The notes: generated by a model not told the origin, from the sequence alone. A DNA stretch of 33,791 nt from Parcubacteria group bacterium (GCA_028286805.1 JAQBQW010000028.1:1-33791); one strand, 5' to 3'; shown: positions 24,817-29,850, numbered from the stretch's first letter. Made by a program: numbers and translations.

Positions 24817-24842
24817 AGAAAAAAGAACGTCGAGACGTTCTT
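24817..24842 (-). terminator. Intrinsic terminator after orphan gene
   Basis: Minus strand AAGAACGT-CTCG-ACGTTCTT-TTTTCT immediately after the TAG. Confidence 0.7.
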
Positions 24843-24843
24843 G

Positions 24844-25197
24844 CTATCTGCTACCCGGAGCCGGAAGGCCTTTCAATCGGGCGTATTCGAGATCGACCAT
24901 ATACACGTCTTTCAAACTTCCGTCCACACATTCGGCTGTACGCGGAGACAACTTGTATGTTAAAACCCGGACGCTGCAACGATGATTCCAGTCCGGATGC
25001 CAACACACCGTTATTTCTCCAGTGAAAGTCGCGTCTCCTTCCTTTGCTTTCGCCCGGAACTTTAGATCTCCACCCCATTCTTTTCCAAGCTCGACCGAGG
25101 ATTCATCGAGAGAAGTCTTTGGAAGGATGGCGTTGACACCGACGGCAAATGCCTTGCGGATGGTTTGGTAATGCCATTCGGATACAAGTTCTGACAT
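24844..25197 (-). CDS. Hypothetical protein (117 aa orphan)
   Basis: ATG at 25197 has GGAG 5 nt upstream; ORF ends directly at a terminator; no family recognised. Confidence 0.65.
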   Translation of the reverse strand: MSELVSEWHYQTIRKAFAVGVNAILPKTSLDESSVELGKEWGGDLKFRAKAKEGDATFTGEITVCWHPDWNHRCSVRVLTYKLSPRTAECVDGSLKDVYMVDLEYARLKGLPAPGSR

Positions 25198-25271
25198 GTT
25201 AACTCCGCTCGAGAGAGTTCGTGCTTCTATTCTTACGATACCATACACCCACTTAAGCCTTCAAATATTTG

Positions 25272-25358
25272 CGGAGGCGGAGAGATTTGAACTCTCGAGG
25301 CCCTTTCGAGCCTGCCACCTTTCCAAGGTGGTGGAATAAACCACTATCCGACGCCTCC
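25272..25358 (-). tRNA. tRNA-Ser (anticodon GGA), CCA not encoded
   Basis: GGAGGCG/CGCCTCC acceptor stem, CCACC-TTGGAAA-GGTGG anticodon arm, long variable arm AGGCTCGAAAGGGCCT, GAGAG-TTCAAAT-CTCTC T arm, discriminator G. Confidence 0.97.
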
Positions 25359-25391
25359 AGTGCTACAGAGAGTAGCAGATTTTAAGTGGAG

Positions 25392-26249
25392 CTACCACTT
25401 CCCACTCGCTCCCCCTCCTCCAGACATTCCTCCGCCAAATCCTCCGAATCCTCCACCTCCCCCAAACCCTCTTCCCCCTCCCATAAAGAAAGGCGGGAAC
25501 GGACCCTTTCCGTTTCCTCCGTGCCTCGACACAAGGAAATCAAAGAGGAGTCCGAGAGGAATTAATATAATGAGAGAAATGATTCCAATGGTTACTCCAA
25601 GGAAGATAAAGAGTGCAATGCCGACAACTCCTCCAATCACTCCTCCCAGCCACCATGATTTAGATCGTCCTAAATAACTTCCCAGTACAACAAGGAAGAA
25701 TATAAAAGGATACATTAACCGGCCAAGGAAAGAATAATCTCTTGTTTGGGGAGCTGTATATTCCGCGACAGGAAATTCTTTCGCAGCATCCTTTTCTAAC
25801 CGCTGCACTGCTCCAACCACTCCGGAATCATAATCTCCCGCTTGAAAAGCGGGAACAATCACTTCAGAGATAATATGCGCGCTTTCAATATCGGTAATGG
25901 CAGGTTCGAGTCCGTATCCAACTTCAATGCGCACTTCTTTTTCATTGGGAGCAATCAAAAGAAGCACTCCGTTGTCTTTCTTCTCTGTTCCGATTCCCCA
26001 TTCCTTGAATAGCTTCACCGCATACGTCTCGATGGTTTCTCCAGTAATGTCTGGAACGGTGGCAACGCTGATTTCGCTGGTTGTTTGTGCAGCAAAGGTG
26101 GTCAGTTCCGTGTTCAGAAACGTCACGGTCTCTGGTTTCAAGATACCGGCGAAATCATTCACGTATCCAGTTGGCTTGCCTGGAGAGGTATAGGCAAACA
26201 GCGCGAGAGGAAAAAGAAAGACGATAAGAGAAGCGCCAATCTTTTTCAT
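25392..26249 (-). CDS. TPM-domain membrane protein (YgcG-like)
   Basis: VNDFAGIL, WGIG..KKDNGVLLL, RIEVGYGLE and Gly-rich tail GGGGASGKW. Confidence 0.93.
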   Translation of the reverse strand: MKKIGASLIVFLFPLALFAYTSPGKPTGYVNDFAGILKPETVTFLNTELTTFAAQTTSEISVATVPDITGETIETYAVKLFKEWGIGTEKKDNGVLLLIAPNEKEVRIEVGYGLEPAITDIESAHIISEVIVPAFQAGDYDSGVVGAVQRLEKDAAKEFPVAEYTAPQTRDYSFLGRLMYPFIFFLVVLGSYLGRSKSWWLGGVIGGVVGIALFIFLGVTIGIISLIILIPLGLLFDFLVSRHGGNGKGPFPPFFMGGGRGFGGGGGFGGFGGGMSGGGGASGKW

Positions 26250-26253
26250 AAGA

Positions 26254-26811
26254 TTATTCGAAGTTTACCGCAGGAGCTGTAGCTGCAGCTGCATCTGATT
26301 TGAAGTATGAACGGGTGTGGAATCCAAACATGCCTGCAATGAGATTGGCTGGGAAACGAGCGATGGTGGCATTGTAGTCTCCAATAATTTCATTGAATCT
26401 GTTTCGTTCAACGCTGATGCGATTCTCTGAACCCTCGAGAGAGGTGCTGAAATCACGAACAACAGCAGAGGAGGCTAAGGTTGGATAATTTTCTGTAATG
26501 ACGAGGAGTCTTCCGAGAGAAGATTCAAGGTTCGAAGCAGCGGCTGCTTTAGCGTCTGGAGTGGCTGCACCTGCATATTGGGTACGAGCTTGAGCGATTT
26601 CGCTGTAGATTTTATTTTCCTGGCTGTAGAATCCCTTAACGGTATTAACGAGGTTTGGGATCAAATCAAAGCGTCTCTGGTATACGGTTTCAACCTGTGC
26701 CCATTGAACATCTGCTGCTGTGGATTTGGTCACAACAGTGTTGTATGAAGAGTAAACCCAGATTCCCAAGAGAACGATGATACCGAGTGCAATAAGTAAT
26801 CCTTTTTTCAT
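26254..26811 (-). CDS. lemA: LemA family protein
   Basis: N-terminal TM, YQRRFDLIPNLV, ENYP.L, ENRISVER..FN and FPANLIA. Confidence 0.95.
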   Translation of the reverse strand: MKKGLLIALGIIVLLGIWVYSSYNTVVTKSTAADVQWAQVETVYQRRFDLIPNLVNTVKGFYSQENKIYSEIAQARTQYAGAATPDAKAAAASNLESSLGRLLVITENYPTLASSAVVRDFSTSLEGSENRISVERNRFNEIIGDYNATIARFPANLIAGMFGFHTRSYFKSDAAAATAPAVNFE

Positions 26812-26846
26812 ATGTGTATTTAGTTAATGAAATAATAGTATCACAA

Positions 26847-26875
26847 TTGACACGTTTCAATAAGAGGAGTAGTTT
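26847..26875 (+). promoter_or_regulatory. Sigma70 promoter TTGACA-N17-TAGTTT for orphan 26906
   Basis: Perfect -35 with 17-bp spacer; embedded in palindrome ATTGAcACGTtTCAAT (26846-26861). Confidence 0.65.
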
Positions 26876-28926: not shown

Positions 28927-28931
28927 ATGAA

Positions 28932-29270
28932 TTATTTAATGATGGCTAATATATTGTCTTCTTTTAATAGAAAGAGTTCTTCTCCATTAGACGAGACTTC
29001 GTCATACGAATATTTGGAGAACAGAACAATGTCTCCTACTTTTACTTTCACCGGCTGCAGTTTTCCGTCTACATATTTTCCTTCCCCGACCGCCAATACT
29101 TTTCCTTGCGCGGATTTTTCAGTGGTCATGCTTTCAGGAAGAATGAAATTCAAGGAAGCTTTTTTTCCTTCGGCTTCTTGGACGGTCATGGGACGGATGA
29201 GGACTCGGTCTGCTAAGGGGACGATTCCGACTGTTTTTGCGGGAGTAATTTTATTTGTTTTTTTCTTCAT
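28932..29270 (-). CDS. groES: Co-chaperonin GroES
   Basis: [26 protein letters not shown] and ILA. Confidence 0.96.
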
Positions 29271-29291
29271 AGTGATTGGTTAAGTGGCCGG

Positions 29292-29319
29292 ATTATAGCA
29301 GGAAAATGGGTTGATTCAA
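29292..29319 (-). promoter_or_regulatory. Sigma70 promoter for groESL (TTGAAT-N16-TATAAT, extended TG)
   Basis: Minus strand ttgaatcaacccattttccTGcTATAAT. Confidence 0.65.
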
Positions 29320-29335
29320 ACGAGGGTTTTTATTA

Positions 29336-29364
29336 TTGACTTTTATATATAATCATGCTATTAT
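29336..29364 (+). promoter_or_regulatory. Sigma70 promoter TTGACT-N17-TATTAT with extended TG
   Basis: Near-consensus boxes with 17-bp spacing. Confidence 0.75.
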
Positions 29365-29469
29365 TTAATCAGTTAATTCCCTGTCCGTACAGGATAGGTG
29401 GTCTCAAGAAATCGAGACATCGGCTGTTCCGTGCCAAACGGAAAAGATCATTCAAACAAGGAGGATACA

Positions 29470-29808
29470 GTGCCCACGCCCGAACAACACAACGTCATTG
29501 CAGGACCAACGAAAGAGCAGTTGAAGTCGGCTCTCTTCGAAGGAATCAACGGCGAATTGGGCCCCGGTGGACAAAACAGCGTCAAATTCACTCTCGGCGG
29601 GAAACGGGAAATCGTATTGCCCGTGAGGATCGAAAGCGTCTCACGCGAAGATGGTTCAGCCGAGAGTTGGCTCTACGAAGGATACGTTCCGTCCAACGAG
29701 TCAACTGCGCGATTCGGAGAACGCCAGCTACAAGCCGGCCGAGTCCAAGGGTACTACAGCACCAAGACCGGGACGGGTGACATGACCCTCACCTTTTCCT
29801 CCTTCTAA
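29470..29808 (+). CDS. Hypothetical protein (112 aa orphan with REDGS..SW motif)
   Basis: AAGGAGG 5 nt before in-frame GTG at 29470; followed by a strong hairpin. Confidence 0.8.
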   Translation: MPTPEQHNVIAGPTKEQLKSALFEGINGELGPGGQNSVKFTLGGKREIVLPVRIESVSREDGSAESWLYEGYVPSNESTARFGERQLQAGRVQGYYSTKTGTGDMTLTFSSF

Positions 29809-29814
29809 CAATCC

Positions 29815-29850
29815 AGGGCGACACGCAGCAATGCAGCGTGTCGCCCTTTC
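29815..29850 (+). terminator. 12-bp perfect GC-rich hairpin, probable terminator or 3' stabiliser
   Basis: AGGGCGACACGC-N9-GCGTGTCGCCCT followed by only TTC. Confidence 0.65.

Follow-up and report, generated by a model that had tools for sequence, protein, structure and literature searches.

Phage morons are autonomous promoter–gene–terminator units inserted between conserved phage genes. The Bacteroidia keep a Shine–Dalgarno (SD) sequence on a few special genes, such as the autoregulated rpsU, and otherwise initiate translation without one, the anti-SD of their 16S rRNA being present but masked. Autoregulatory mRNA leaders, such as those of ribosomal-protein genes and the thrS operator, mimic the other RNA target of the regulator, and small translational riboswitches such as preQ1-II and SAM-II have as their core an H-type pseudoknot close to the ribosome-binding site. 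Here we compare with these systems three small open reading frames (ORFs), A, B and C, of a Parcubacteria group bacterium. They lie between positions 24,817 and 29,850 of the window, by which we mean the whole 33,791-nucleotide stretch of DNA that was analysed (GCA_028286805.1, JAQBQW010000028.1:1-33791). We consider it probable that the three are real, independently expressed accessory genes that were acquired as complete units and do not form one system. ORF C together with its structured leader is best read as a new element, a widespread and undescribed riboregulatory unit of the candidate phyla radiation (CPR).

ORF A (117 residues; 24844–25197, minus strand), ORF B (109 residues; 26906–27235, plus strand) and ORF C (112 residues; GTG start, 29470–29808, plus strand) have as conserved neighbours a 2H phosphoesterase, tRNA-Ser(GGA), TPM, LemA, GroEL, GroES, SecG, a solute-binding protein and RNase J. 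The order TPM–lemA–groEL–groES/secG–solute-binding protein–rnj is kept in 15 loci of the genus, among which GroES identity is 48–65%. Each ORF scores as coding in its annotated frame alone (codon-usage scores of 11.2 for A, 7.3 for B and 15.0 for C, against −5 to −65 in the other five frames), and a diverged homologue with conserved columns was found for each. The three proteins are unrelated to one another (best E value 0.044 over 21 residues in an all-against-all BLASTP), no sequence, protein or end motif is common to the three units, and none of the proteins has a profile match in Pfam, PHROGs, NCBIfam or PADLOC at E ≤ 0.01. Word-based homologue searches returned only itself for A and nothing for B and C, and the latter two are absent as called genes from a collection of 5.8 billion proteins.

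All three units have promoter-like boxes, an SD-like motif and a hairpin that begins 1, 4 or 6 nucleotides past the stop of A, B or C, respectively. Of these promoter and terminator signals around a single gene, those of ORF C are the strongest; A and B have weak consensus matches, and their promoter boxes fall below the scan cut-off of 9 of 12 consensus matches and were read directly from the sequence. Single signal matches mean little, because in 24500–30200 the scans found 10 promoter-like sites where 6.3 were expected and 9 terminator-like sites where 6.4 were expected. The initial annotation, which had described three mutually unrelated genes of 109–117 residues, each self-contained with promoter, SD and hairpin and set between conserved genes, is borne out on these points. 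It had also called the genes orphans, which holds as far as library matches go and fails for ORF C, a member of a large CPR family described below.

The contrast that it drew between these units and the core genes, which it described as lacking SD sequences, also stands. The window is an entire 33.8-kb contig of a 577-kb, 97% complete genome of Parcubacteria type (G000); the other genomes named here (G004, G009, G010 and so on) belong to its family or genus, the family being that of GTDB, with 86 genomes scanned. The 3′ tail of the G000 16S gene reads GGAGUAAUUCAAUU (contig C15, L011 5870–5910, minus strand), compared with the bacterial consensus GGAUCACCUCCUUU, and so lacks the CCUCC on which canonical SD-led translation depends. 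CCTCC is present in none of the 29 16S tails from the family, G000 included, from which the row for G018 (unpublished) was left out as it is not a 16S tail. In its place all 29 tails have a conserved AUUCAA, in the form GGA-(G/A/U)(U/A/C)(A/C)-AUUCAA; such conservation across G000 and 28 other family genomes (L088–L117) implies that the tail is under selection by something. Only a single 16S 3′ end was found in G000. SD-like motifs such as those of A, B and C seem to be illegible to the ribosome of this host. An SD-like motif precedes 69 of 596 G000 starts and 59 of 597 internal control positions, that is, starts show no enrichment. The contrast between the three units and the core genes is therefore real, given family tails without an anti-SD and starts without SD enrichment. 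In the genome-wide upstream profile, T at −12, A at −11 and T at −7 stand out (45%, 54% and 44%, respectively). They form a −10 box whose end lies about 6 nucleotides 5′ of the start codon, and this pattern suggests that many G000 mRNAs are leaderless; groES and lemA are exceptions with short leaders of about 14–20 nucleotides. The best reading is that the host lineage lost the 16S anti-SD, that most of its genes start without an SD and that many look leaderless.

Loss of the anti-SD in a subgroup of Parcubacteria has been published (Tsurumaki et al. 2022, RNA 28:1041, PMC9297842), and the family tails without CCUCC and the lack of SD enrichment seen here agree with it. The passages of that article considered here report the rRNA loss; SD-bearing, GC-richer, Pfam-less stand-alone genes do not appear in them, nor does the conserved AAUUCAA tail in place of the anti-SD. 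The coexistence of a genome-wide non-SD style with a small SD-bearing gene set also resembles the situation in the Bacteroidia, but the masking mechanism is inapplicable here because the anti-SD is absent from the 16S gene itself.

The clearest of the three units is that of ORF C. Its TG-extended promoter (TTGACT-17-TATTAT, 29336–29364, plus strand, as are the other features of this unit) matches the consensus at 10 of 12 positions, AAGGAGG (29458–29464) stands 5 nucleotides 5′ of the GTG start and also precedes the ORF C copies of G010, G034, G081, G036 and G073, and a strong hairpin with 16-nucleotide arms follows 6 nucleotides past the stop (29815–29847; −26.4 kcal/mol, z −5.8), although its T-tract is poor. 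The groES–secG spacer in which the unit lies is no longer than about 130 bp in 12 of the 15 genus loci. When 29336–29847 is subtracted, the spacer of the window measures 115 bp, against 116 bp in G009, and both flanks (the groES −10 region on one side, the secG promoter and start on the other) align to the empty sites. The alignment gap, at about 29326–29847 (about 520 bp), runs from just before the −35 box of ORF C to the end of its terminator. By this alignment, ORF C in G000 is a clean promoter-to-terminator insertion of about 520 bp between groES and secG.

In the remaining 3 of the 15 loci the same slot holds other, unrelated ORFs: a 279-residue HExxH protein in G015, a 301-residue homologue of it with a 393-residue ORF in G002, and a 97-residue ORF in G014. 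The slot looks like a recurrent landing place, and the HExxH-like motif of the two homologous proteins reads SHEVGH (G015, L014 2133–2972; G002, L024 3307–4212). The only part of 24500–30200 present in an RNA library is a 239-nucleotide contig identical to 29520–29758, inside ORF C, which gives a weak hint of expression. Nothing of the ORFs was seen in two of the three runs of this one RNA study; groEL cover was absent, and this is not taken as evidence. The last codons of ORF C (UUUUCCUCCUU, 29790–29804) contain an anti-SD-like CCUCCU and are 80% complementary over 15 nucleotides to its own AAGGAGG–start region (29458–29472), 317 nucleotides upstream, which may be chance.

ORF C belongs to a very large CPR-wide family of uncharacterised small proteins. 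Its motif is GPSK..L...LF ... EDGSGESW ... GY.ST..R.G. In a profile search of 1.84 billion representative proteins, 1646 clusters reached E ≤ 1e-3 and 502 of them E ≤ 1e-10, most being 85–120 residues long; the empty word-based search for C was thus a failure of sensitivity. By protein profile the family is present in 5 of the 86 family genomes. A genome scan gave 54 loci, of which 36 are titled Patescibacteria or CPR, 9 bear proteobacterial labels that are unchecked and 9 are unspecific; the CPR lineages include Saccharibacteria, Paceibacterota, Uhr-, Zambryski-, Yanofsky-, Kaiser- and Doudnabacteria, among others. No match is shared among 94 members in Pfam, NCBIfam or PHROGs, each of which gave one stray match, and a sequence search of the PDB with the family found nothing below E 0.38. 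The AlphaFold2 (AF2) model of ORF C is an alpha/beta structure of good confidence (pLDDT 82.6, pTM 0.75). Foldseek gave no match at E ≤ 0.001 and Bet v 1-like rows at a TM-score of about 0.3, which we rejected as the fold, and the ESM Atlas had no usable match (best 0.85). A symmetric homodimer was predicted through the most conserved residues with a score of 0.55, against 0.00 for the best control; among proteins of solved structure, 20 of 30 homo-pairs and 1 of 23 single chains score this high. At least 82% of contacts agreed between runs, with a partner pLDDT of at least 76, and the predictions support pairing of the protein as a homodimer.

Nearly all members of the family are preceded by a conserved leader of about 100 nucleotides. 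It opens with a sigma-70 promoter and AAUUCC. Then come hairpin P1, whose loop is GUAU, GGUCGU or GGUGG, hairpin P2, and AUAAG or CAACG with a stretch of purines that forms an H-type pseudoknot by pairing to the next hairpin's loop. A linker containing GUUC and then AAGGAG lead to a hairpin with the start codon in its loop, again GUAU, and with codons 2–3 as its 3′ strand. A covariance model (R1) built from 32 leaders found 59 instances in 63 sources. The window holds a divergent copy (29377–29478, plus strand; 28.5 bits, E 5e-5) with P1 (CCUGUCC-GUACA-GGAUAGG), P2 and P3 hairpins followed by the SD and start. Of the 86 family genomes 12 have the motif, one doubtfully. All but one of the 11 credible leaders stand before an ORF C family member; the remaining one, from a tandem pair in G081, precedes a 60-residue coiled-coil ORF with the same first six codons. 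In the genome-contig loci every instance stands before an ORF C family protein. Across 56 instances, a promoter ends within 20 nucleotides of the motif in 42, a terminator-like hairpin is present in 50 and an SD-like core in 50, and the median ORF behind the leader has 100 residues.

The structure is backed by covariation. In the model-guided alignment, 94.2% of cells are paired, compared with 70.9% in shuffles and at most 44.7% in slid controls, and this alignment, being fitted to the model, favours the structure. Double changes occur in 14 of 14 pairs, and 198 cells are changed on both sides, against 48; none of 500 shuffles came up to this. The pseudoknot helix covaries in all 4 of its pairs, and RNAalifold on a plain MAFFT alignment recovers the identical three helices. 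With compensatory changes and a fixed place before one family, the leader has the general properties of a cis-regulatory element. It matched none of the 4227 Rfam models in cmscan searches at E ≤ 10 for the window and E ≤ 1 for 20 other loci, and no description of it turned up in the literature listings searched.

The loops of P1 and of the start-codon hairpin change together. Where P1 of a complete leader has GUAU (42 cases), the start hairpin mostly has it too (37), and 10 of the 14 leaders with another P1 loop carry the same variant at the start (GGAU in three, GUUAU in four, GCAU in one, UGGU in one with a GUG start, and UACAG in the window). We propose that the leader controls translation of the alpha/beta protein of about 100 residues encoded behind it, the P1 loop copying the loop of the start-codon hairpin. 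We infer, and prefer, autoregulation, in which the predicted homodimer would bind the two look-alike hairpins and block its own start codon. Like ribosomal-protein and thrS leaders, the ORF C leader is a covariation-backed leader before a small, highly conserved gene in which a copied hairpin overlaps the start codon. Unlike them, it copies its own start-codon hairpin rather than a site in rRNA or tRNA, and its protein is no known RNA binder, has no assigned fold class and is paired with a leader that has no Rfam match. An upstream ORF from the AUG of the P1 loop was rejected, as its length and frame vary and some P1 loops have no AUG; CsrA-type GGA sites in P1 were rejected because the GG after AU is not conserved. 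The likeness of AAUUCC in the leader to AAUUCAA in the host 16S tail is taken to be fortuitous, since CPR groups beyond this family have the leader motif too.

The main alternative to protein-binding autoregulation is a riboswitch that senses a metabolite or ion, which we hold to be possible, if rather doubtful. The conserved unpaired junctions (AAUUCC, GGUCGU/GGUGG, AUAAG/CAACG and GUUC), conservation over many CPR lineages and the pseudoknot adjoining the ribosome-binding site all fit such a sensor; as in preQ1-II and SAM-II, a stretch of purines just 5′ of the SD is base-paired to the next hairpin's loop. Whereas those riboswitches control metabolic genes, this leader is tied to a single protein family of unknown function, no transporter or enzyme gene from which a ligand might be guessed was seen behind it, and a single ligand pocket does not predict that the two hairpins should covary in loop type. 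Some points count against autoregulation as well. The leader copy of the window is the third weakest of the 59 instances and has no start-codon hairpin, so that regulation there may be degenerate; RNA binding by the ORF C protein is purely conjectural; and the best match of the wide VIA search, CBF-beta at Z 6.8, lies in the range typical of unmatched models and was rejected as the fold.

Several family loci have features of their own. G010 (L008, C1, 1–1330) has two stand-alone units between the 3′ end of its 16S gene and tRNA-Ile, an ORF C homologue (394–678) and, at about 730–1010, TTGACT, GGAGG, a 61-residue ORF with a hydrophobic C terminus and a terminator. In G081 (L118/L040, C6, 1501–2410) the two tandem leaders hardly differ in their 3′ parts, and the ORFs behind them begin with the same six codons (MTSNDN). 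Behind the first is the 60-residue coiled-coil ORF and behind the second a 150-residue family member with a C-terminal extension, an arrangement that looks like recombination inside the leader/start region. Upstream of the ORF C module in G099 (L032, C9) are a LAGLIDADG-type ORF, presumably in a 23S intron (2–472), and, directly before the module, a 5S gene with a partial second 5S-like copy (1000–1230). Sub-threshold Rfam matches near family loci are a group I intron (L055 2253–2463; 36.6 bits, E 1e-5) and a hammerhead HH9 (L035 826–896; 30.2 bits, E 0.0015).

ORF B has a different history. Its promoter-like boxes (TTGACA-17-TAGTTT, 26847–26875, plus strand) are divergent from the lemA promoter and below the scan threshold; GGAG (26895–26898) lies 7 nucleotides 5′ of the ATG. 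The 10-pair, intrinsic-terminator-like hairpin that follows the ORF (27240–27265, plus strand; −16.2 kcal/mol, z −3.1), and is itself followed by TTTTTCTTTT, stands where ORF B and groEL converge and could act for both genes. The lemA–groEL spacer of G009 holds an ORF of 113 residues in matching orientation that is 27% identical to B (BLASTP E 1e-5), with identical boxes and spacer (ATAAGAGGAGTAG) and GGAG 6 nucleotides 5′ of its ATG. Among 11 other loci with a lemA gene, the spacer is empty in 10 and G009 is the occupied one. A sample of 400 genomes of the order yielded no ORF B beyond G000 and G009, and a metagenome pattern scan gave no confirmed relative. ORF B would go back to the common ancestor of G000 and G009, where it either arose or arrived, and would have kept its place since.

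ORF A appears to be a rare gene shared with G004. Its promoter-like boxes (TTGAAG-18-TATCGT, with TG before the −10; 25235–25264, minus strand) match at 8 of 12 positions, below the threshold, and lie directly 3′ of tRNA-Ser(GGA) (25271–25358); this promoter may be weak, with read-through from the tRNA gene instead. GGAG (25203–25206, minus strand) stands 5 nucleotides 5′ of the ATG. One nucleotide past the stop is an 8-pair terminator-like hairpin (24823–24842, minus strand) followed by TTTTTTCTT, of canonical shape and with a T-run, although its fold energy alone is no better than that of shuffles (z 0.1). Among the 86 family genomes ORF A occurs in G000 and G004 (32% identity, E 4.5e-14), and in G004, where GAGGA stands 4 nucleotides before the ATG, it directly follows a tRNA-Val/Leu/Arg cluster and so occupies a different site. 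A word-based search and a metagenome pattern scan found and confirmed no relative outside these two genomes. The 3′ flank of tRNA-Ser varies among 10 relatives, its commonest follower being an HhH-GPD glycosylase-like gene; ORF A is in none of them, and none offers a clean empty site. The AF2 model has an N-terminal helix and a five-stranded sheet at low confidence (pLDDT 63), for which Foldseek gave nothing below E 0.36 and the ESM Atlas no usable match. Beside ORF A, the entire stretch from tRNA-Ser to msrB is unlike that of G009, and gene calls at 23277–24247 are ambiguous: a truncated VTT-domain ORF (23503–23871) that matches profile positions 62–120 of 123 only overlaps both a 167-residue Pfam-less ORF (23744–24247, with GGAGG before an internal start) and an 89-residue ORF on the opposite strand.

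We extended the comparison to the wider genome, calling genes ourselves by codon score on 11 contigs (54% of the genome) and taking the 215 genes of at most 330 residues. Genes without a Pfam match at E ≤ 1e-3 (73 of 215) were classed as Pfam-less, and GGAGG, AGGAG or AAGGA 4–11 nucleotides before a candidate start was counted as an SD-like 5-mer. Such a motif is present in 23 genes, of which 17 are Pfam-less, compared with 56 of the 192 without it (odds ratio 6.9, p 4e-5); for control motif sets the Pfam-less share was 6 of 14 (p 0.56) and, for a G-rich set, 10 of 16 (p 0.025). Genes with the 5-mer before the leftmost start have a mean GC of 0.512, against 0.453. A terminator-like hairpin accompanies 13 of the 17 Pfam-less SD genes and 41 of 136 Pfam-positive non-SD genes, and a promoter 9 of 17 and 25 of 136. 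The six genes that combine SD, promoter and terminator are all Pfam-less, and the co-occurrence that the initial annotation had proposed to look for genome-wide is thus present.

The reading we favour is that each unit is a monocistronic promoter–leader–ORF–terminator arrangement in a variable intergenic slot of a syntenic, very small CPR chromosome, and that the units would have come ready to express from other, SD-using CPR lineages. Acquisition is the best explanation because the units are GC-richer (0.506 for A, 0.503 for B and 0.558 for C; genome gene mean 0.450, standard deviation 0.043), keep GGAG-type motifs and are patchily distributed. The slots at groES–secG and lemA–groEL, empty in most relatives, also fit, as does the match of the ends of C to its promoter and terminator. 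Several observations weigh against it. The GC difference is a soft signal, because GC spans 0.41–0.54 among loci of the same genus. No donor was identified. ORF B is conserved in place with G009, including promoter and GGAG, so that at least one unit has been inherited vertically for some time. Over all called genes SD 5-mers are barely commoner than their own permutations (GGAGG precedes 1 of 120 genes of at most 130 residues, and 13 of 229 genes of 131–250 residues against 2–6 for permutations), so the SD association concerns a small minority of genes, and it is partly compositional because the G-rich control set also associates. Pfam-less status is a mere proxy for accessory status, the crude caller missed ORF B (7.3, below its cut-off of 8) and left the 4-mer GGAG of ORF A uncounted, and the RNA-library contig could be DNA carry-over.

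The initial annotation had gone further and suggested a class of single-transcript modules, moron-like or inserted through an RNA intermediate, which we consider here as one mobile class with a common insertion mechanism. An RNA intermediate would explain why unit borders coincide with transcript borders, as in the indel of ORF C, from just before the −35 box to the terminator end. The ORF C module also changes context from genome to genome (the 16S–tRNA-Ile spacer in G010, after 5S in G099, after a tRNA cluster in G081, groES–secG in G000), no neighbour gene recurs in 59 module loci, G081 has two tandem units with near-identical leader ends and different ORFs, G010 has a second small promoter–GGAGG–ORF–terminator unit beside its ORF C copy, and all six fully equipped units in the sampled half of the genome are Pfam-less. 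Like morons, the units stand alone between conserved syntenic genes, differ from their surroundings in GC and are present or absent among relatives. Unlike morons, they lie in no prophage and have no phage relatives: the backbone is a CPR chromosome with housekeeping genes such as groES and secG, no PHROG matched, and three viral-contig scans, one for each ORF, confirmed no relative. As for an integron-type or other site-specific cassette, no direct repeats of at least 10 nucleotides or target duplications frame any unit, the only strong inverted repeats being the terminators; a Pfam scan of 12 neighbouring genes found no integrase, transposase or reverse-transcriptase family, no attC-model search having been made. 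The loci of G010, G099, G081, G004 and the window had suggested that the modules prefer the vicinity of tRNA or rRNA genes; this was rejected, since about 10 of 58 loci have a tRNA or tmRNA gene within 1.5 kb, no more than expected. The units lack common features, and their histories are three: C is CPR-wide with its leader, B is in place with G009 and A is elsewhere in G004. Conservation in place, which the initial annotation had named as evidence against its proposal, holds for B only, with G009 and over a short distance, and not for C or A. One mobile class is therefore an unlikely account, and a phage origin, an RNA intermediate and an insertion machinery all found no support.

A separately translated set, the other option of the initial annotation, in which a protein factor or another RNA would read GGAG and so control these genes independently of the leaderless core genes, is highly improbable in our estimate. 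It could account for the well-spaced GGAG-type motifs in homologues within this family, which has no anti-SD (GAGGA for A in G004, GGAG for B in G009), for the 11 credible ORF C leaders of the family, 9 with a GGAG or GAGG core and 2 with AGGA, and for the tie of SD 5-mers to Pfam-less genes, stronger than that of control motifs. Yet beyond these kept motifs nothing positive speaks for it: SD 5-mers show no overall positional enrichment, one G-rich control set is tied to Pfam-less genes as well, G000 has no second rRNA bearing an anti-SD, and in the ORF C leader GGAG often lies in the start hairpin, paired with codons 2–3, so that RNA structure alone can conserve it. Transfer out of SD-using CPR, whether recent or repeated, accounts for these facts too. 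That the ORFs are chance open frames with chance consensus matches is almost certainly wrong and already largely refuted; the near-expected counts of single signals and the absence of B and C from the large protein collection fit it, but frame-specific codon scores, conserved columns in homologues of all three, the huge family and confident model of ORF C and the conserved position and promoter of ORF B in G009 do not. A bolder and very unlikely extension is a circulating CPR pool of autonomous mini-genes that would move as whole units and that, in lineages without an anti-SD, would still depend on a GGAG read otherwise than by 16S pairing, for ORF C through start-codon-mimic hairpins and its own dimer. 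The preferred reading thus remains acquisition of separate, complete units with different histories.

Elsewhere in G000, contig C26 carries an array of five paralogous small T4SS_pilin (PF18895) genes (L131 12804–15190), and PrgI-like and other type-IV-related genes are found at L137 14603–15046.

The CPR, or Patescibacteria, make up a large share of bacterial diversity and have almost no experimentally known regulation. The ORF C leader is a covariation-backed candidate regulatory RNA that is widespread among them, absent from Rfam and tied to a very large small-protein family without a Pfam, NCBIfam or PHROG model. The host lineage offers a natural experiment on the fate of SD-bearing incoming genes where the ribosome has lost its anti-SD. 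Even genomes of 0.6 Mb keep defined slots, such as groES–secG and lemA–groEL, in which stand-alone accessory genes come and go. If the pool of circulating mini-genes and its own way of reading GGAG were real, ultra-small bacteria would have a second, separately controlled translation channel. The compact promoter–leader–gene–terminator module could also be of use as an expression part now that genetic work on Saccharibacteria is emerging.

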